A program made the translations under genes and the position numbers. Under the pieces are notes generated by a model that did not search any database, had not been told where the DNA came from, and was given only the letters and a program-made list of their open reading frames with translations. From a virus (taxonomy: Duplodnaviria; Caudoviricetes), in the IMG/VR virus record IMGVR_UViG_2806310979_000001, positions 1 to 64,000 of that record: 64,000 nt of DNA. The stretch is one strand, 5' to 3'. This document shows positions 270 to 63,903 of the stretch, one piece after another. How positions within the stretch are numbered: the first letter of the stretch is position 1; every line of letters starts with the position of its first letter.

Positions 270-998
270 TTGACATATCAGATTTATAATGGAGACTGTA
301 TTAAGGAAATGAAGAAAATTCGCGATAATACAGTTGATTTGGTAGTGACAGATCCACCCTATAATTTAGGGAATTTTATGAAAAATAGAGATACTAATCT
401 TGCGAAAATGCGTGATAATTTTTTTGGAGCGGCCGGATGGGATAATTTAGAATTTGAAGATTGGGAAAGAAGTATGGATGCTTTTCTTGAACAAACGGCT
501 CGTATCATGAAAAAAGGTGGATCTATTATTATATTTATGGCAGTAATAAAGGTAGAGACGATAATAAGACTTGCAGAAAAGCATGGTTTTTACTATAAAA
601 CAACAGGTATATGGCATAAGCTTAATCCAATGCCAAGAAATATGAATTTGCACTTTGTGAATTCGACCGAGTCTTGGTTATATTTTACTTATAAAACAAG
701 AACAGGAACATTCAATAATGAAGGAAAAATGTTGCATGATTTTATTGAAACAGCAGTAACACCGGTTAGTGAAAGGAAATATGGCAAACATCCAACGCAA
801 AAGCCAGAGCAACTTATATCGCATTTTGTTTATACATTATCTAATAAAGGAGCGTGTGTTCTCGATCCATTTATGGGTAGTGGAACTACGGGAGTAGTAT
901 GTAAAAGATTGGATCGAAATTTTATAGGAATTGAATTAGATACATCATATTATGAAATTGCAAAAAAAAGGATGGAGGAAACAGGGGATGAAGCCTAA
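270..998 (+). CDS. DNA amino-methyltransferase (m6A/m4C, beta class)
   Basis: DPPY catalytic motif before HPTQKP and LDPFMGSGTT SAM-binding motif; TTG start. Confidence 0.92.
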   Translation: MTYQIYNGDCIKEMKKIRDNTVDLVVTDPPYNLGNFMKNRDTNLAKMRDNFFGAAGWDNLEFEDWERSMDAFLEQTARIMKKGGSIIIFMAVIKVETIIRLAEKHGFYYKTTGIWHKLNPMPRNMNLHFVNSTESWLYFTYKTRTGTFNNEGKMLHDFIETAVTPVSERKYGKHPTQKPEQLISHFVYTLSNKGACVLDPFMGSGTTGVVCKRLDRNFIGIELDTSYYEIAKKRMEETGDEA

Positions 999-2073
999 GT
1001 TAATGGATTTATTCGCAGGTGTTGGAGGATTATCACTTGGATTTGAAAAAATGGGCTTTGATATTGTATTTGCAAATGAATTTGATGAAGGGATAGCAAA
1101 TGCTTATAAAATAAATCATCCCAATACGAATGTACTAGTAGCAGATATAACAAAGATAAATTTTGATGAGGTATTTGATAAATATGTAGGTAGGATTGAT
1201 ATTATAGTAGGCGGTCCTCCTTGCCAAGGATTTTCGCAAAAAGGGCAAAGGAAAACGATACATGATGAGAGAAACTTTTTATTTAAATATTATGTTAAAG
1301 CGGTTGAAAAAGTAAGACCTAAATATTTTGTTATGGAAAATGTTCCAAATTTATTAACCGCTGAACATGGTTATTTTAAGAATGAAATAATAGAATTGTT
1401 CAATAAACTTGGTTATGAAATAAAAACAGGTGTTTTGGATGCTGCTGATTATGGTGTGCCGCAAAATAGGAGAAGAGCAATTATTATAGGGAAAAACAGA
1501 GGTGAGGCACCCGATTTGCCAGAACCATTAAAACAGAAAGTGACAATATGGGATGCTATTAGTGACTTGGCATATCTTGAATCAGGAGAAGGTTCAGAAA
1601 TACAAAAATATAAAAATCCAGCGGAAAGTTTGTATCAAAAAGAAATGAGAAAAAATAGTAAAGAGTTATATAATCACATTGCAACAAAACATTCAAAAGT
1701 AGCATTAGAAAGACTTGCCTTGATTCCGCCAAATTGTGGGAAAGAAGTTTTGCCAAAAGAGCATTTAACAAAATCAATATATAGTGGGACTTGGACAAGA
1801 ATGGTAAAAGACGAGGTGTCGGTAACAATTACTACGAGATTCGATACACCTTCTTCTGGAAAGTTTACGCATCCTTATTTGAATAGGGCTATAACGGTAC
1901 GTGAAGCAGCGAGAATACAATCTTTTCCAGATGATTTTCATTTTATTGGTACAAAAACGTCTCAGATGAAACAAGTTGGAAATGCTGTTCCACCTAATCT
2001 TGCCAAAGCTATAGCAGAAGTTATTTTGAATGATATGCGGAAGGAGGTATCATTAAATGATAAGACCGAGTGA
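988..2073 (+). CDS. DNA (cytosine-5) methyltransferase
   Basis: DLFAGVGG, GGPPCQGFS, ENV, PQNRRR, REAARIQSFPD, QVGNAVPP; ATG 988 follows GGAGG. Confidence 0.95.
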   Translation: MKPKLMDLFAGVGGLSLGFEKMGFDIVFANEFDEGIANAYKINHPNTNVLVADITKINFDEVFDKYVGRIDIIVGGPPCQGFSQKGQRKTIHDERNFLFKYYVKAVEKVRPKYFVMENVPNLLTAEHGYFKNEIIELFNKLGYEIKTGVLDAADYGVPQNRRRAIIIGKNRGEAPDLPEPLKQKVTIWDAISDLAYLESGEGSEIQKYKNPAESLYQKEMRKNSKELYNHIATKHSKVALERLALIPPNCGKEVLPKEHLTKSIYSGTWTRMVKDEVSVTITTRFDTPSSGKFTHPYLNRAITVREAARIQSFPDDFHFIGTKTSQMKQVGNAVPPNLAKAIAEVILNDMRKEVSLNDKTE

Positions 2074-4453
2074 AATAGAACAATACCCAGAAATAGATTT
2101 AAAATTAGGAATTAAATCATCATTGCCAAATATAAAAAGTACATTAGCATTATTAATCCTTATATGGGAGGCATTGGGAAAACCTTCAGAAGTTTTATAT
2201 TCTATGGAAGAAGGTAATAAACTTAAATTATCTGCTGAAGTAAAAAAATCTATTTTAGAATATGTAAAGCCATATCAGGATAAAAGTATTCTTGATAAAG
2301 GCGAGATGGAAAATTGCCTTGATTCGAATCAATTATTAAAATCTCAAATAGAAGCATTAATTGTGGCATTTGAGTTGGTGTGGAAAATAGCAAAAATTAG
2401 ATTTGAAGATCGGCAGAAACCTTTTAGTGCGGAAAGAACAGGGGGAAATAGGTACAATAAAATAATCACATATACCTCGAATATTGACGTCTTGGGTGTA
2501 CTATTTGATTTGAACAGAGAGGAAACTGATAAAATTATTCTAAATTGGTTGGGGTGCAATATAGCTATTGATTTAAAAACGGAGAGAGATTTTTGCAAAA
2601 TTCTTACTGTTATGTCAGAAACAGCGGTATATAAGATGAATAATGAGGGTAAGGATATTATATTCAACCAAAATGAAATATACAAAAGTTTAAAAGATTC
2701 GGATAGTGTAGATATTAATGGCGATAAAGAGGCAAAGGGCTCGCTGAGAATTTTAAAATCACTTTTATCGGAGAAGTTAAACCCTTATCTTGGTTATAAA
2801 ACTGGAAATATCAGTTGTGCAAGCGATGATATAGAGAACCTGGAAAATTATCAAAAAAGAGTAGATGCATATCTATCGCTGTCTGCGTCCAAAATAATTA
2901 GGAGTGAAGATGAAAATAATTATGATGATGTGTTTACTCATAATTTATTTGGAATACATATAAAGCAAAAAAATGATGCATTATCAGAGGATAATCCACA
3001 TATATGTATTGGTTGGTCTAATTTAGGGGACTTGACAGACGTTGATAGCCGGGATAAATTATCTGCAATCTATGATCAAAAATACTCAAAAAATAAAAGA
3101 GGTAGAGGTCAAGATATTGGACAGATATGGAGATTTTTGCATGATATGAGTATTGGAGACTATGTCATTTTTGCAGAGTCATCTGTATTTCATATAGGGC
3201 AAATTGAGTCATACTATTATTATGATAATACTGAGAAGCAAAATCAAAGCGAAGATTATACAAATAATCGAAAAGTAAAATGGATTAAAAAGAATATTGA
3301 TCGCAATATTTTGTCGGCTAATATGCATAACTCTTTAAAAACAGCGATGTCTGTTTGGACACTGAATGATTATAAATCAGTGGTTGTTGATTTGTTGAGA
3401 GGAACATATACAAAAGATGGAGAGATTGATATGGAAGACGAATACATAGAATTAATTTATAATACAAAGATTTCTTTGGACTATGAAAGAAACCGTATAG
3501 TATTTGGTGCTCCGGGTACCGGAAAGAGTTTTGGATTAAAGAAAGATTGTGATAATTTATTGAAAGATACAGAAGGATCATATGAAAGAGTTACGTTTCA
3601 TCCAGATTACTCTTATTCACAGTTTGTTGGCACATATAAGCCAGTCATGGATATAGACGGAAAAAGTATAAAATATGATTTTGTTCCGGGCCCTTTTATG
3701 CGTGTGTATGTAGAAGCACTAAGAAGTGGAAGAACAGATAATCCTCAGCCACATCTTTTGCTGATTGAAGAAATTAACAGGGCAAAGGTGGCAGCAGTAT
3801 TTGGAGATGTATTCCAGTTACTTGATAGGGATGCAGCAGGTGTGAGTGAATACGAGATTCAAGCATCTGAAGACATTAGAAGATACCTTGCAGATAAATT
3901 AGGTGGAAATCCTGATAATTATCAAAAAATACGAATTCCGAATAATATGTTCATTTGGTCTACAATGAATAGTGCTGATCAGGGTGTATTTCCAATGGAT
4001 ACTGCATTTAAGAGAAGGTGGAATTTTGAATATTTAGGTATCAATAAAAATGAAGATCAGATTTCTGGTATTGGGAAAATAAAACTGGCCGGAAGCGATG
4101 AGACCGTTGAGTGGAATATTCTCCGCAGAGCCATTAATGCAAAAATGTCATCAGAACAGTTCAAAATTAATGAGGACAAACTAATGGGGCCATTTTTCCT
4201 TTCCAAGAAGATTATTGCATCTGATGAAAACGGAATGATTATTAATTCTGATAAATTTGTGGATGCGTTCAAAAGCAAAGTAATCATGTATCTGTATGAG
4301 GATGCAGTAAAACAAGGCAAACATAGATTTTTTGACGGGTGTGATAGCAGTAAATATTCATCGGTGTGCGATGCTTTTGACAAACTTGGAATGGGCATTT
4401 TTGGAGCAAACTTTAAGGAAAATTTCTATGATGAACAAAGGGATGAGATATAA
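2057..4453 (+). CDS. McrB-family AAA+ GTPase restriction subunit (LlaJI R1-like) with long N-terminal recognition region
   Basis: Walker A GAPGTGKS, VTFHPDYSYSQFVG, Walker B IEEINRA, McrB signature MNSAD, AFKRRW. Confidence 0.9.
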   Translation: MIRPSEIEQYPEIDLKLGIKSSLPNIKSTLALLILIWEALGKPSEVLYSMEEGNKLKLSAEVKKSILEYVKPYQDKSILDKGEMENCLDSNQLLKSQIEALIVAFELVWKIAKIRFEDRQKPFSAERTGGNRYNKIITYTSNIDVLGVLFDLNREETDKIILNWLGCNIAIDLKTERDFCKILTVMSETAVYKMNNEGKDIIFNQNEIYKSLKDSDSVDINGDKEAKGSLRILKSLLSEKLNPYLGYKTGNISCASDDIENLENYQKRVDAYLSLSASKIIRSEDENNYDDVFTHNLFGIHIKQKNDALSEDNPHICIGWSNLGDLTDVDSRDKLSAIYDQKYSKNKRGRGQDIGQIWRFLHDMSIGDYVIFAESSVFHIGQIESYYYYDNTEKQNQSEDYTNNRKVKWIKKNIDRNILSANMHNSLKTAMSVWTLNDYKSVVVDLLRGTYTKDGEIDMEDEYIELIYNTKISLDYERNRIVFGAPGTGKSFGLKKDCDNLLKDTEGSYERVTFHPDYSYSQFVGTYKPVMDIDGKSIKYDFVPGPFMRVYVEALRSGRTDNPQPHLLLIEEINRAKVAAVFGDVFQLLDRDAAGVSEYEIQASEDIRRYLADKLGGNPDNYQKIRIPNNMFIWSTMNSADQGVFPMDTAFKRRWNFEYLGINKNEDQISGIGKIKLAGSDETVEWNILRRAINAKMSSEQFKINEDKLMGPFFLSKKIIASDENGMIINSDKFVDAFKSKVIMYLYEDAVKQGKHRFFDGCDSSKYSSVCDAFDKLGMGIFGANFKENFYDEQRDEI

Positions 4454-5934
4454 TGAAAGTCGTTTCACAATATGTCAGGGAACAGAAACGTTATACAAAA
4501 AATGATCTTAAAAGTAAGTTTTCTTTTGATGAAGACGGAGTGGAAAAATTTATAAAAAGCCTTAAAGCCTATGGTGTTTTGAAAAGTGTAAAAAATACTG
4601 ATGATCAGCTTGCAATGTCAGATCTCATGGATGATGATGTGGAAATTACTGATGAGACGGCTGAAAGCGGAGATTGTTTGTATGTGTTTACATATGTAGG
4701 AATTATTACCTGTGGAAGTCGTGTCATCAAAGTATATCCCAAATATTTATTATCAAAGAAAGATGAAGATCTTCTGGGTGAGATGAAACAGATTCTTAAA
4801 GTATTGGAACGATATAGCCGATCGGAAGAACAGATTATCAATGTTTTTAATGGAGATGGAGAGAATAGGAGCTTTAATATTCTTGCAGTAATTCTTTTTC
4901 TGATAAATGATTACTATGAATATGGTATTTATACGAATAGTGAAGATATTGTAGAAATAAATGGAGAAGGAGATATTCTTTGGGGAAAAACGATTGATGA
5001 AAGTTTTGCACTAATAGAGGACAACCGTCCGTATTATATGGAATTGTATACGGGTAAATCTATAGAAGATGATACCGATTATTTCAAAAGATTGCATGAG
5101 TGTGTACTTACAGAATGCTCTAGACAGCTCCAAGATGCTCAGTTGGATATACTGTTTGATATGGATAGTATAGAATTATCTGAGGAAGTATTGGATGATT
5201 TTGGGGATAGAGAATATATTCTTGAAAGAATTATCAAAGAGCTGAATCTTCAGTTTAATACCCATAGGCAAATACTGCTAAAAACATTGTATGCATATGT
5301 ATCGCAGGATAGGAAGATGCTTGATGAAAATGATGGTATCAGTATGTATGGAACGACAGCATATCACGCAGTATGGGAAAAAGCATGTGCAGAAGTATTT
5401 GATAATAAACTTAATACGATACTAGGACAGTTGAACATGACAGTACCACTTGCGGAACAGTATCAAGGGAAAAAAGAAAGACATCTAAAGTTGATTGATA
5501 TTATAGAAAAGCCAATATGGCAGGGTATTGATACAGAAGCTAAAGCAGCAGATACATTGATTCCTGATTTGATTAGCATTCCTTGTATAGATGGAAAAGA
5601 TTGGTTTATCATATTTGATGCAAAATACTATAATATTCAACTTGAGAAGGGAAAGTCGCTTCGAGGGAATCCCGGTGTTGGGGATGTTACAAAACAGTAT
5701 CTATATCAGTTGGCGTATAAAGATTTTATAGATGCACATGGGATTACGAAAGTGAGAAATTGTTTCCTAATGCCGACAGAGAATAATGAAATTGTAAAAA
5801 AGGGTATTGCAAAGATGGCTATGCTTGAAAGATTGGGATTAGAAAACATACAAATTCGACAAATTCCGGCAGGCAGATTATATGAGTTGTATTTAACGGG
5901 CAGACATATGGATATTTGTGAATTGATGTTATGA
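4453..5934 (+). CDS. LlaJI-family (McrC-like) PD-(D/E)xK restriction endonuclease subunit
   Basis: LIPD...IFDAKYY and DVTKQYLY motifs; coupled to the McrB-like gene. Confidence 0.85.
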   Translation: MKVVSQYVREQKRYTKNDLKSKFSFDEDGVEKFIKSLKAYGVLKSVKNTDDQLAMSDLMDDDVEITDETAESGDCLYVFTYVGIITCGSRVIKVYPKYLLSKKDEDLLGEMKQILKVLERYSRSEEQIINVFNGDGENRSFNILAVILFLINDYYEYGIYTNSEDIVEINGEGDILWGKTIDESFALIEDNRPYYMELYTGKSIEDDTDYFKRLHECVLTECSRQLQDAQLDILFDMDSIELSEEVLDDFGDREYILERIIKELNLQFNTHRQILLKTLYAYVSQDRKMLDENDGISMYGTTAYHAVWEKACAEVFDNKLNTILGQLNMTVPLAEQYQGKKERHLKLIDIIEKPIWQGIDTEAKAADTLIPDLISIPCIDGKDWFIIFDAKYYNIQLEKGKSLRGNPGVGDVTKQYLYQLAYKDFIDAHGITKVRNCFLMPTENNEIVKKGIAKMAMLERLGLENIQIRQIPAGRLYELYLTGRHMDICELML

Positions 5935-5941
5935 TGAAGGA

Positions 5942-5970
5942 TTGACAAAAAGAACGTATGTTCGTATAAT
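5942..5970 (+). promoter_or_regulatory. sigma-A promoter with LexA (Cheo/SOS) box in the spacer
   Basis: TTGACA 5942-5947, 17 bp, TATAAT 5965-5970; GAAC-GTAT-GTTC at 5952-5963. Confidence 0.9.
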
Positions 5971-6055
5971 GAAAGTATCGCTACAGAAATACCAGGCAGG
6001 GAGTTGTTAAGCAGACCAATCAATATAGTTCCGGTATTGGAGGTGTAAATTAACA

Positions 6056-6319
6056 ATGGAGTTAGAAGAGTACATTAAAGATGCTACGGATGAGGCAATG
6101 AGTGATTACATAAAATCTGAAAAGTATAAAGAACACAAGAAACAAATTAATGATTTATTACGGAACATGAGAGAAAATCTTTCATCAGAAAAAATGATTT
6201 TACTGAATCAGCTATTGGATGCAATATCGGTATGTGATGGAGCATTTGCATCAGAAGCGTATTTGCAGGGCGTTGTTGAAGGAATTGCGTTGTACAAAAA
6301 GAAGATTAGATCTGTTTGA
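6056..6319 (+). CDS. small helical protein (DUF6809-like), paralogue of 6368-6634
   Basis: GGAGGT RBS; about 40% identical to the convergent neighbour by manual alignment (LEEYIKDA...FASxAYLxGVVxGIAL). Confidence 0.8.
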   Translation: MELEEYIKDATDEAMSDYIKSEKYKEHKKQINDLLRNMRENLSSEKMILLNQLLDAISVCDGAFASEAYLQGVVEGIALYKKKIRSV

Positions 6320-6322
6320 AAG

Positions 6323-6367
6323 AAAAGCTGATGCACACCTTGATGAAGGTAGTGCATCAGCTTTTTT
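6323..6367. terminator. bidirectional intrinsic terminator
   Basis: AAAAGCTGATGCAC/GTGCATCAGCTTTT stem between convergent genes. Confidence 0.85.
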
Positions 6368-6634
6368 CTATTCACTTTTATTGTCCAGTGTTTTATTTTT
6401 TAATGCAATTCCACTTACAACACCACGAAGATAGGCGGCGGAAGCAAAATCACTATGTTGTTGTCCCAAGACATTTACTAATCTGTTTAAGGTTGAAACT
6501 TGATCTGGGGTCAATTCGGAACGCAGAGAATATAGAAGTTTTTCGATTTCTTCTCCTTGTTGCTTGTATGTTTCGGTAGTCAGGTAATCTTTCATTTCAT
6601 CGTCAATGGCATCTTTAATATATTCTTCAAGCAT
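6368..6634 (-). CDS. small helical protein (DUF6809-like), paralogue of 6056-6319
   Basis: GGAGGT RBS; clear paralogy. Confidence 0.8.
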   Translation of the reverse strand: MLEEYIKDAIDDEMKDYLTTETYKQQGEEIEKLLYSLRSELTPDQVSTLNRLVNVLGQQHSDFASAAYLRGVVSGIALKNKTLDNKSE

Positions 6635-6675
6635 TTTAATACCTCCAAATGCTGCTGTGATATTTGCGGGTTACG

Positions 6676-7056
6676 TTATGCGAATATCATACTGTCAGCA
6701 TCATCGGTATCCAGACCACGAATCTGGTTACGGTGAAGATACACATTTCGGAGTCGATATGAATAATTCCGAAATGAGAAGGTGGCTGACTTGGCGATAG
6801 GAATGAATAAAACTGCTTTTATATATGCGTGCAGGGAGCAGCAGGATGAGCGTCGATCCTCCTTTGTTTTGTGATATAAGAAATCATGCATGAAAGCGAT
6901 TAAGCTCATTAGGTGTTCATGGACTTTATCAATAAGCTCATCAATAACATTTTCTACAATTTCATATACCAGTTTATGTAAGGCATCATGAATAACTTTT
7001 ATAGAAAATGTGACTTCTTCGTTCGTTTTTTTAATAATCATCCGGGATTCTTCCAT
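6676..7056 (-). CDS. hypothetical protein, first gene of the NrdR-box operon
   Basis: GAGGTG RBS and near-consensus promoter upstream; no recognisable domain. Confidence 0.6.
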   Translation of the reverse strand: MEESRMIIKKTNEEVTFSIKVIHDALHKLVYEIVENVIDELIDKVHEHLMSLIAFMHDFLYHKTKEDRRSSCCSLHAYIKAVLFIPIAKSATFSFRNYSYRLRNVYLHRNQIRGLDTDDADSMIFA

Positions 7057-7092
7057 ACGCTAAATTCACCTCTTTTCTTTGTTGAGTCAAAA

Positions 7093-7145
7093 ACTCTATA
7101 TATTGTGGTATGTATTATTATAATACACAATATATAGAGTTTCAA
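7093..7145 (-). promoter_or_regulatory. sigma-A promoter overlapped by two tandem NrdR boxes
   Basis: Minus strand TTGAAA (7140-7145), 17 bp, TATAAT (7117-7122); ACTCTATATATTGTGG 7093-7108 and ACACAATATATAGAGT 7125-7140 match acaCwAtATaTwGtgt, 32 bp apart. Confidence 0.8.
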
Positions 7146-7155
7146 GGGTTAATTG

Positions 7156-7716
7156 TTATGCAGCTAATCCAAATAATTCTAACATTCGGATTTCGACTGG
7201 TTCGTAATCAGCGGGACCATATTGTAGCCACTTATGATAATAGCACATGGAATAGTATGCTGCTTGGATGGATAGGTCAAATTTAACTGCAACATCAATA
7301 TAATCATCGCATTGTGCATAATGAATCAATGGTGGTGGCGCAATACTATATTTTGCAAAAAAGTTTGCTTCCGCTTCTGCGAGTTCGCTCTCTTGGGTAT
7401 GATCTAACCGGATATGCCCAATTTCATGAAGGATTGTCCAACGTTGGCGTTCGTGGCTGTTTTCATCATTATAAAAAATAACCCACATAAACATACCAGA
7501 GACTTTATCCTCTACTAACATATGAAAGCCATCCATACTGATGTTCATAGCGGTTACCAATTTTTTTCCCTTTAATTTAGAATAGGGAACTAATCGGTAA
7601 TTTAGTCTTCTTGCAATTTCCATGCAGTCGATGGGGTATGTGGTTAATCCACATTCTTCATACATATCGACTACATTTTCTTTAATGTTTTCATATTGAG
7701 AGTCGCTCAGATACAA
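7156..7716 (-). CDS. ImmA/IrrE-family metallopeptidase (antirepressor)
   Basis: RQRWTILHEIGH (HExxH) and EAEANFFA; downstream of XRE repressor. Confidence 0.9.
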   Translation of the reverse strand: MYLSDSQYENIKENVVDMYEECGLTTYPIDCMEIARRLNYRLVPYSKLKGKKLVTAMNISMDGFHMLVEDKVSGMFMWVIFYNDENSHERQRWTILHEIGHIRLDHTQESELAEAEANFFAKYSIAPPPLIHYAQCDDYIDVAVKFDLSIQAAYYSMCYYHKWLQYGPADYEPVEIRMLELFGLAA

Positions 7717-7731
7717 AAAATCAGTCCTTTC

Positions 7732-8058
7732 TTAGTCATCTGGCTCAAGAAGGGCATTAATCAGTTCGTTTCTTTGTTTCCGAGTCATTTGGGATGCGTT
7801 ACGTGCAATGAGTCGGTGGATTTTGTAATACTCACTCTCAAAATCGCCAACTTCTTCTGTACCTAATAAATAGTCGGAAGTTGTGTGTAATGCGGTGGCA
7901 ATATTAGCGATGACAGGACCTTTGGGGGTACGATCATTGCTGATATAGCGAGACATGGAAACTTCGGTAACACCTACTTTTTCAGCCAATTCTCTTTGAG
8001 TCAAACCATTTTTTTCTAATAGTTCAGCAATCCTACCTCCTAATGTGTTTTCATTCAT
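7732..8058 (-). CDS. XRE-family prophage repressor (ImmR/CI-like)
   Basis: GLTQRELAEKVGVTEVSMSRY HTH; paired with ImmA, divergent from early genes. Confidence 0.9.
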   Translation of the reverse strand: MNENTLGGRIAELLEKNGLTQRELAEKVGVTEVSMSRYISNDRTPKGPVIANIATALHTTSDYLLGTEEVGDFESEYYKIHRLIARNASQMTRKQRNELINALLEPDD

Positions 8059-8392
8059 CTCTTAATTACCTCTTTCTAAATTGAATTTGCATATGCTCTG
8101 CAGGGCTCTTGCGGCTCTTGCGTCTTTGGCATTTTGCAGTGTATGGCTTCTCGTTTTTTGGGAATATTGTTTGTCAGCACTTTAGTTTATTGAAAAAATA
8201 TATTCAATTTGGGAGTGTGCTATTACCGTTCCCGATGGTCGTTTAGCTCCAACTGGCTTGCTCTTATGACTGGCTCATTTTGTCCTTGCACTACAGCAAT
8301 CATACAAATACTTCTTGCATTCTCTTTTGTGTAGTATAATATAAAATTTTAATCATAAAAAATAAAAAAGGAATACTGAACTATTTACCAAA

Positions 8393-8594
8393 AATATATC
8401 ATAACTTACCATTTGTGTCAATCTAAAAAGATGAAATGCGTGAAAAAGTAGTATTAAACCACGATTTGGCATTATGCAAAACTAAAAATAGGATTGACAA
8501 CTTACCGATTGTTTAATATAATTCGGTTTATAAGATGAAGAAATGGAAGAAAAAGGAAATTATTTTTTTACACAATACTTACCAAATGGTTAAG
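8393..8594. promoter_or_regulatory. divergent lysis/lysogeny promoters with repeated ACTTACC operator half-sites
   Basis: Leftward TTGACA (8416-8421), 17 bp, TATATT; rightward TTGACA (8494-8499), 17 bp, TATAAT (8517-8522); ACTTACC at 8404, 8500 and 8577. Confidence 0.8.
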
Positions 8595-8641
8595 AAAAAG
8601 AAGAAAAAATTTCCAAATAAAATTAAGAGGAGAGTGACATT

Positions 8642-8833
8642 ATGAAAGAGAAACAGATGAGCATTCATTTACGGTGTCCGTGGTGTGAAGGAAGTGAAAC
8701 ATTAGCCGATGGAAAAGGAAAAGTAACGATATCAGTCCAGTGTCCTAAATGTAAACATATTTATAAAGCGGATTTAGATACTGGAAAGACCGAAAAATCA
8801 AAAGCGCAAATGCGACTCAAAAATAGAAGATAG
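8642..8833 (+). CDS. small Zn-ribbon protein (CPWC...CPKC; KTR/Mu Com-like)
   Basis: two CxxC motifs; GAGGAG RBS; first gene of the rightward transcript. Confidence 0.7.
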   Translation: MKEKQMSIHLRCPWCEGSETLADGKGKVTISVQCPKCKHIYKADLDTGKTEKSKAQMRLKNRR

Positions 8834-63541: not shown

Positions 63542-63570
63542 TTGACAAAACGAACGTATGTTCGTATAAT
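63542..63570 (+). promoter_or_regulatory. sigma-A promoter with perfect LexA box in the spacer
   Basis: TTGACA, 17 bp, TATAAT with CGAAC-GTAT-GTTCG 63551-63564. Confidence 0.9.
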
Positions 63571-63672
63571 TATCTCATCGCTACATTAGGAGTGTTGAAC
63601 AGTCTACAGAGATATGGTGTTTGGCAGACTATTTCCCTTGGTCGAACTTATATCGCAGGAGGCACGTTTAAT

Positions 63673-63903
63673 ATGACATACGAAACAGGTACAGAAGTTT
63701 TCTTCATTGAGAGCAATCGTATAATCCGTAAGGCAACCGTGGTCAGAAGAAGCGGTGATTTTTACATATTACGATTTGATGAAGGCGGTGGCATCCAGTT
63801 AAGAGAAGGCAGAATTTTTCCAACAAAAGAACAGGCAGAAGCAACGCTGCCTGGAGAAAAGGTTCAGAAAAAAGCTAACTCTCCATACGATTACTGGCAT
63901 TGA
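63673..63903 (+). CDS. small beta-rich hypothetical protein (76 aa), predicted SOS-inducible
   Basis: AGGAGG RBS; downstream of LexA-box promoter. Confidence 0.7.
   Translation: MTYETGTEVFFIESNRIIRKATVVRRSGDFYILRFDEGGGIQLREGRIFPTKEQAEATLPGEKVQKKANSPYDYWH

Follow-up and report, generated by a model that had tools for sequence, protein, structure and literature searches.

A candidate accessory module of an ImmR/ImmA-type lysogeny switch, with predicted LexA and NrdR inputs, in Heliusvirales-like prophages of Lachnospiraceae

The IMG/VR provirus record IMGVR_UViG_2806310979_000001 (Caudoviricetes) is 113.5 kb long, and its first 64 kb constitute the stretch analysed here, hereafter called the window. 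Our study concerns a segment in which two small paralogous genes, a and b, converge on a shared terminator beside genes for an ImmR-type repressor and an ImmA-type protease. Copy a lies behind a promoter with a predicted LexA box, and copy b is the second gene of an operon that begins with a 126-amino-acid (aa) open reading frame (ORF), ORF126, and has a promoter with two predicted NrdR boxes. All the items described for this locus in an earlier note, made from the sequence, were recovered in place when the sequence was checked. The features are the following (window coordinates):

5942-5970, + strand: sigma-70-type promoter of copy a, TTGACA-17-TATAAT, 12/12 consensus match
5951-5964, no strand assigned: predicted LexA box (Cheo type), AGAACGTATGTTCG, in the spacer of that promoter, from sequence and conservation
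5971-6055, + strand: leader of 85 nt (ATCGCTAC ... GTTRARCAG ... CCGGTATTGGAGGTG), conserved across 9 loci
6056-6319, + strand: copy a, DUF6809-like protein of 87 aa with three helices predicted (PF20648, 24.7 bits; AlphaFold2, AF2)
6321-6367, both strands: bidirectional intrinsic terminator between the convergent paralogues, from fold energies and U-runs
6368-6634, - strand: copy b, DUF6809-like protein of 88 aa, second gene of the ATP-cone operon, 45% identical to a
6676-7056, - strand: ORF126, with a putative NrdD-type ATP-cone N-terminus (PF03477) and a C-terminal motif conserved among homologues, R-x-x-Y-L...R...D-D
7108-7093, - strand: predicted NrdR box 2, CCACAATATATAGAGT, over the expected transcription start, with the six critical positions
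7140-7125, - strand: predicted NrdR box 1, ACTCTATATATTGTGT, filling the -35/-10 spacer, with the six critical positions
7145-7117, - strand: promoter of the ATP-cone/b operon, TTGAAA-17-TATAAT, 11/12 consensus match
7156-7716, - strand: ImmA-type metalloprotease (Peptidase_M78) with an HEIGH motif (PF06114, E 3.6e-11)
7732-8058, - strand: ImmR-type Xre/CI repressor (PF01381, E 3.4e-11; match to an RstR-type repressor)

The gene of the Xre helix-turn-helix (HTH) repressor is followed, 15 nt further on, by that of the HEXXH Peptidase_M78 protease, which is the composition of an ImmR/ImmA pair, and the module adjoins this pair directly, as the earlier note had it. The two convergent paralogues of 87-88 aa are present as well, although their identity is 45% over 82 residues (E 2e-24) and not the approximately 40% first estimated. 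A single bidirectional terminator does separate them: the predicted folding energy of its hairpin is -30.5 kcal/mol (z -7.6) for the + strand and -28 kcal/mol (z -9.3) for the - strand, and U-runs are present on both. The gap between ORF126 and copy b is 41 nt and contains a ribosome-binding site and no hairpin; in the related loci, the position of copy b is likewise occupied. Judged by sequence, two canonical stress-responsive promoters flank a convergent gene pair beside ImmR/ImmA.

The spacer of the + promoter carries GAACGTATGTTC, and the box AGAACGTATGTTCG lies wholly within it, giving the GAAC-N4-GTTC palindrome over a promoter that defines LexA boxes in Bacillota. The consensus used here derives from the LexA box of B. 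subtilis, CGAACRNRYGTTYC, and LexA releases its box upon RecA activation. The promoter is conserved in 9/9 related loci inspected, and GAAC-N4-GTTC occupies the same position in all nine and in every further relative with the region in view. The LexA-type box that had been reported in a consensus promoter is therefore sound, and the predicted LexA input is universal among the loci in which this region can be seen. Homologues of the leader occur in L014, L015, L096, L097, L101, L103, L105, and L012; a predicted hairpin in it pairs with the Shine-Dalgarno sequence, with only 2 covarying pairs, and an Rfam search of 5800-8700, leader included, gave no match. The region 63542-63903 of the window contains a near-identical second promoter, TTGACAAAACGAACGTATGTTCGTATAAT, with the same leader motifs, ATCGCTAC and GTTGAACAG. 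It drives a 76-aa ORF (63673-63903), a homologue of the small ORF found after copy a in most relatives, just upstream of the HTH (133 aa) and ImmA-like (268 aa) genes of a second prophage.

Repression of ribonucleotide reductase genes is seen as almost the only task of NrdR. Six positions in each of its boxes matter for binding (C4, A6, A8, T9, T11, and G13) and both boxes are required, and NrdR is documented to bind heterologous sites as well (PMC13584703); linkers of 14-17 or 24-27 bp are tolerated (PMC12051234). The predicted boxes ACTCTATATATTGTGT and CCACAATATATAGAGT carry 12/12 of these positions, are separated by a linker of 16 bp, and cover the - promoter, in agreement with what had been claimed for it. 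When the window was scanned for pairs with all six critical positions per box and a linker in either range, this pair alone was found, against 0.07 expected per window in first-order Markov simulations; the window contains no further pair, not even between immR and cro, and the only other box of this kind in the provirus record is a single weak site (1772-1787). These results place the predicted tandem boxes in agreement with every known sequence and spacing criterion for NrdR operators, and the promoter overlap, a host-encoded NrdR, and similar boxes at host nrd genes fit such an operator as well.

Boxes 1 and 2 are mutually inverted copies with 17-nt arms that could form an RNA hairpin (-21.6 kcal/mol) followed by U residues, and no other, GC-rich terminator was found after immA in the window lineage. 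The inverted repeat at 7093-7140 might therefore resemble NrdR boxes by accident and be only the immA terminator or an operator for a phage protein. We regard this explanation, which the earlier note had itself put forward as an objection, as highly improbable. First, chance would rarely supply 12/12 critical positions with an allowed linker, and the pair has no second example in the window. Second, the other lineages with an NrdR pair have a separate strong terminator after immA (folded for L014 and L101) and retain the boxes beside it, so termination does not require them. Third, the alternative linker of some relatives, 26 bp, is exactly one helical turn longer, a length that NrdR tolerates (PMC12051234). 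Finally, the boxes resemble those at the nrd promoters of the hosts.

These hosts are Lachnospiraceae (Blautia, Faecalimonas, and Lactonifactor), and the prophages are Heliusvirales-like and from the human gut. The region 5900-8100 shares 98.8-99.4% identity with Blautia phage NatCom_2932 and two Faecalimonas phages, all three from human faeces and assigned to Ca. Heliusvirales, and it is also present in one uncultured Blautia genome and one Lachnospiraceae metagenome-assembled genome. NrdR is encoded in 4/4 host genomes examined, which carry the window prophage or a related one. NrdR-like boxes, for example CCACAATATATGGTGT, precede nrdD and nrdJ-like genes in the four hosts, and one of them lies inside a TTGAAG...TAATAT spacer, the same layout as in the phage promoter. 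In the set L039, L041, L043, and L044, the boxes at host nrdD promoters are paired, with 14 bp of linker, and lie upstream of the -35 element, and nrdJ-like genes have a single strong box in the -35/-10 spacer. The host comparison is restricted to sites at nrd genes; a count of the box pattern over the host genomes, allowing two mismatches, gave no excess over the control count. LexA is encoded in host genomes G001 and G002, where the inspected region upstream of lexA contains only CGAATATCTGTTTG, a weaker LexA-like site. The 113.5-kb provirus record contains no match to NRDD (the class I/II large-subunit family was searched in the host genomes only) and none to nrdR (TIGR00244), which agrees with the reported absence of nrd genes; its sole ATP-cone match is ORF126.

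Special attention was given to ORF126, which had been described as an unknown ORF. Our analysis assigns it to a conserved family of 39 clusters, 125-136 aa in length, obtained by profile search, with an N-terminal consensus MQIVKRDGxEVxFDISKIVEAI and a C-terminal consensus R-K-x-Y-L-L-R-T-Q-D-R-G-x-x-D-D. Three diverged homologues (32-37% identity) score 27.2, 27.5, and 30.2 bits against the ATP-cone profile PF03477, above its gathering cut-off of 25.8 bits. In 160 of 401 Lachnospiraceae genomes, the first 55 positions of the family profile match the N-terminal end of frames 713-880 aa long; two of these frames were checked, and both have an ATP-cone and an NRDD domain, that is, they are NrdD. 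Only two full-length family members occur in the same 401 genomes, and no long protein was returned when residues 1-70 were compared by phmmer with 1.8 billion representatives. By homology, then, the N-terminus of ORF126 is a probable ATP-cone, closest to that of NrdD, and because the family profile matches NrdD N-termini, the protein appears to be a phage-specific fusion of an NrdD-type cone start with a new C-terminal domain. The idea that ORF126 is a dead 5' remnant of an nrd gene, prompted by frameshifted or recombinant 3' halves in near-identical metagenome relatives, was rejected on account of the full-length reading frame conserved in diverged loci at 32-37% identity and of the 39-cluster family.

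The resemblance to NrdR and NrdD lies in the beta-hairpin and first helices of the N-terminus, which fit the ATP-cone profile, and in the placement of the gene behind NrdR boxes, as is the case for nrdD and often for nrdR. Unlike those proteins, ORF126 has neither a Zn-ribbon nor a reductase domain: it begins directly with the cone, its N-terminus lacks the CxxC pairs of the NrdR Zn-ribbon, about half of the cone is recognisable, and the C-terminal 60-70 residues are family-specific. Two further observations concern this gene. In the near-identical metagenome relatives P0003-P0007, it is frameshifted in the 3' half or continues into unrelated sequence, for instance the C-terminus of an ABC-ATPase, which could be due to assembly errors or to real decay. 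In L101 (3910-4695, - strand), and likewise in L105, the gene behind the NrdR-box promoter, with its 26-bp linker, encodes a 261-aa protein that has a Ser/Ala-rich N-terminus in place of the ATP-cone and retains the C-terminal motif of the family.

ORF126 could act as a decoy that joins the cone oligomers of host NrdR (or NrdD) and lifts the repression or inhibition of deoxyribonucleoside triphosphate (dNTP) synthesis to the benefit of phage replication; the NrdR operator in front of its own gene would then provide positive feedback. In favour of this, its N-terminus is homologous to NrdD cones, oligomerisation mediated by the ATP-cone sets NrdR activity (PMC9110341, PMC12051234), and the phage appears to lack a ribonucleotide reductase of its own, as far as the missing NRDD match tells. 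Nevertheless, only half of the cone is recognisable, the L101 lineage has exchanged it for an unrelated N-terminus while keeping the NrdR promoter and the C-terminal domain, and the gene belongs to the lysogeny operon and not to a replication operon. A decoy function thus seems distinctly unlikely.

The gene order immR-immA-ATPcone-b, converging on (76-95-aa ORF)-a, is common to at least 17 diverged loci, and it is the same in all mapped viral, genome, and metagenome relatives as far as their contigs reach; the 76-95-aa ORF after copy a is present in most of them. One metagenome profile scan, with a 12-sequence alignment, contributed 5 loci. The boxes had been expected to be conserved with the genes, which holds for the LexA box in all loci with the region in view and only in part for the NrdR pair, found at the homologous place in 11 of the 17. 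Where the pair is present, the critical positions are intact, and variation is seen in the remaining bases of the boxes and in the linker, which measures 16 bp in the window, L013, L014, L012, and L114-L117, and 26 bp in L100, L101, and L105. The L012 boxes are a full pair by the six critical positions, although a mismatch count over the full consensus would call them degenerate. Among the loci that lack it, the ATP-cone gene of L015, L096, L097, and L103 starts 36-60 nt after immA with no boxes, and L107 has a terminator and no boxes. From this distribution, the predicted NrdR input is frequent and selected, but optional, and it is not essential to the module.

In several lineages, then, the operon is predicted to be co-transcribed with the lysogeny genes immR-immA, which fits a function in protecting the lysogen, whether by superinfection exclusion or by abortive infection: an invading phage would drain dNTPs and derepress NrdR promoters, and the ATP-cone protein and copy b would rise and block the invader. 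The NrdR regulon is strongly induced by lytic phage infection in S. pneumoniae (PMC6755750), the neighbouring slot carries variable defence cargo (McrB/LlaJI here, a methyltransferase and an endonuclease in NatCom_2932), and copy b evolves fast, as an arms race would give. The tight linkage to immA in every locus and the LexA-driven paralogue are, however, more typical of switch components, and no toxic or enzymatic domain is recognisable in the module proteins. Searches of PHROGs and NCBIfam provided no functional name for them, the PHROGs matches being all of unknown function (PADLOC defence families were not searched). We therefore consider lysogen protection improbable as the function of the module.

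The paralogues themselves are best called a DUF6809-like sister group, on profile evidence: PF20648 (DUF6809) is the precomputed match in many of their listed homologue clusters, whose members are about 85 aa long, and matches in the ESM Atlas are labelled only "phage protein" and DUF6809. The AF2 model of the DUF6809-like protein has three helices and a predicted local distance difference test (pLDDT) score of 89.5. Canonical Pfam DUF6809 genes in Lachnospiraceae genomes adjoin small Xre or ribbon-helix-helix regulators (L078 1471-2361; L079 1157-1791), an observation that is suggestive only; in L078, two of them in tandem flank a third small helical ORF. In the LexA-driven copy a of Lactonifactor sp. 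BIOML-A5, codon 5 is followed by an in-frame TGA (L014 about 3001-3020, equal to L006 about 4261-4290).

Whether a and b are interchangeable is central to the proposal of the earlier note, namely an OR-gate in which the same effector is produced upon DNA damage (through LexA) or dNTP depletion (through NrdR) and triggers prophage induction or abortive infection. In the window, both copies keep the C-terminal family motif (GVVEGIAL and GVVSGIAL), they are 45% identical, copy a groups with b-like sequences in the tree, and both operators are sound by sequence. Family-wide, however, the copies are distinct: one conserved clade holds 8 of 9 a copies, whereas the b copies have long branches (1.4-2) and have lost the GVVEGIAL motif in the L015, L096, and L101 lineages. 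The a copies are thus conserved and the b copies fast-evolving, as far as the tree and alignments indicate, and a shared effector fails for the family as a whole. In addition, in the lineages without boxes, copy b goes with immR-immA, that is, it would be expressed during lysogeny, which ill suits an inducer, and the first gene behind the NrdR promoter encodes the ATP-cone protein and not the paralogue. An OR-gate is accordingly unlikely; as a general design, one interchangeable effector is a weak proposal, and in this particular phage it is possible.

The interpretation we favour, with a probability of roughly 55%, is that these genes constitute a conserved accessory module of an ImmR/ImmA-type lysogeny switch, with predicted LexA and NrdR inputs, in Heliusvirales-like Lachnospiraceae prophages. 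A consensus LexA box in the spacer of a consensus promoter implies that copy a would be silent until the SOS response. NrdR binds DNA as a tetramer with ATP and dATP and releases it with ATP alone (PMC9110341, PMC12051234); host NrdR with both nucleotides would shut the ATP-cone/b promoter, for which a canonical NrdR operator is predicted in this phage and about two thirds of its relatives, and the promoter would open as dATP falls, for example during replication stress or heavy phage DNA synthesis. Since there is no GC-rich terminator after immA here, read-through from the immR promoter probably provides a basal level of the ATP-cone protein and copy b. Both the promoter with its NrdR boxes and the cone start may derive from the 5' end of an nrdD-type ribonucleotide reductase gene and have been fused to a phage-specific C-terminal domain.

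With respect to function, the three small helical proteins may be protein-binding modulators of ImmA/ImmR, acting as anti-repressor, protease cofactor, or antagonists. Copy a would modulate the switch upon SOS induction, much as LexA-controlled anti-repressors do, and the ATP-cone protein and copy b would be resident partners whose level goes up when dATP drops. The fast-evolving resident b and the conserved SOS-induced a would then have different roles and not form one effector. A role as prophage inducer or ImmA cofactor is purely what we infer.

Several results weigh against this interpretation. With regard to the NrdR input, the pair is absent in 6/17 loci, and the 17-bp inverted repeat of the boxes could serve as a weak immA terminator in this lineage. 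With regard to ORF126, its own PF03477 score is 21.6 bits, below the cut-off; the match covers only profile positions 1-55 of 88; and it reads KK where the family has KR. Its AF2 model (pLDDT 73; predicted template modelling score, pTM, 0.32) consists of a beta-hairpin (residues 5-18) and two long helices, which is not a four-helix cone, and a Foldseek search of the model against PDB gave only generic coiled-coil matches. Nucleotide binding by ORF126 is uncertain because of this half-cone profile match and of the model that lacks the four-helix cone. With regard to the paralogues, the PF20648 scores of a (24.7 bits) and b (19.4 bits) are both under the cut-off of 27 bits; for the DUF6809-like model, the matches from Foldseek (PDB and BFVD) and from VIA-align wide were all of a generic coiled-coil kind (best Z 6.1); and the window copy a falls outside the a clade, in an unresolved position among b-like sequences.

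The closest functional parallel is found in temperate phages whose small anti-repressors are controlled by LexA, such as Tum of coliphage 186. PMC6872733, citing Lemire et al., describes the anti-repressors of Gifsy-1 and Gifsy-3 as LexA-controlled as well. As in these systems, a small gene stands beside the immunity region with a promoter of its own that would be blocked at a host LexA box and, because of that block, SOS would reach the switch through transcription and not through self-cleavage of the repressor. The systems differ in that no relation of sequence or fold to Tum or the Gifsy proteins was found, so that anti-repressor activity is proposed here only by analogy of layout; moreover, an ImmA protease is already dedicated to the repressor of this module, the repressor operon includes a paralogue of the small gene, and there is a second predicted input, NrdR.

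In ICEBs1 ImmR/ImmA and the Listeria MpaR/CI-like pair, a COG2856/Peptidase_M78 protease cleaves the repressor on a stress signal, as described in PMC6872733, where Bose et al. 2008 is cited. The order of an Xre-type repressor followed by a Peptidase_M78 protease is shared with them, and the two further conserved genes appended to the operon and the convergent SOS gene are not. What switches ImmA-type proteases on has yet to be settled in the known systems (PMC6872733), which makes the appended genes natural candidates for this function. The predicted operator, in turn, resembles those of bacteria (E. coli nrdAB/nrdHIEF/nrdDG; L. monocytogenes and S. pneumoniae nrdDG; PMC9110341, PMC12051234, PMC13584703) in its two partially palindromic 16-bp boxes with the critical positions, in its linker of 16 bp (26 bp in some relatives), and in the position of the boxes over the -35/-10 spacer and the transcription start. 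It departs from them in the genes it would control, which encode an ATP-cone protein and a DUF6809-like protein in a lysogeny module and not a reductase, and in being known from sequence alone.

A more specific version of the favoured reading is tentative, and we would not bet on it: at its lysogeny switch, the prophage would read the dNTP status of the host in two ways, via an NrdR operator that it has hijacked and via an ATP-cone protein, derived from nrdD, that would link the ATP/dATP ratio to the cleavage of ImmR by ImmA, with the SOS-induced paralogue displacing the resident one. If true, this would be a nucleotide-pool-sensing pathway of induction or anti-superinfection and would provide the first natural activator or cofactor for ImmA-type proteases.

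Our literature search retrieved no paper that describes this module or links NrdR or an ATP-cone to a prophage switch, and none that mentions DUF6809. What stands out is that, in a widespread group of gut prophages, the operon of repressor and protease contains a predicted NrdR operator and an ATP-cone protein of probable reductase origin, opposite a paralogue whose predicted LexA control is strictly conserved. If the sites work as predicted, phage induction or immunity would depend on both DNA damage and dNTP supply, gut prophage responses to replication-stress drugs and to other phages would gain a testable handle, and the NrdR regulon would extend to mobile elements, an extension not found in the papers searched.

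With respect to the surroundings of the module, many viral contigs stop 0.1-1.2 kb from copy a. The cargo in the slot just outside the LexA promoter differs from one relative to the next (window 270-5934, L004 1-3797, L015 28-2875): two methyltransferases and McrB/LlaJI in the window, an endonuclease and a methyltransferase in NatCom_2932, and a helicase-like restriction subunit in L015.

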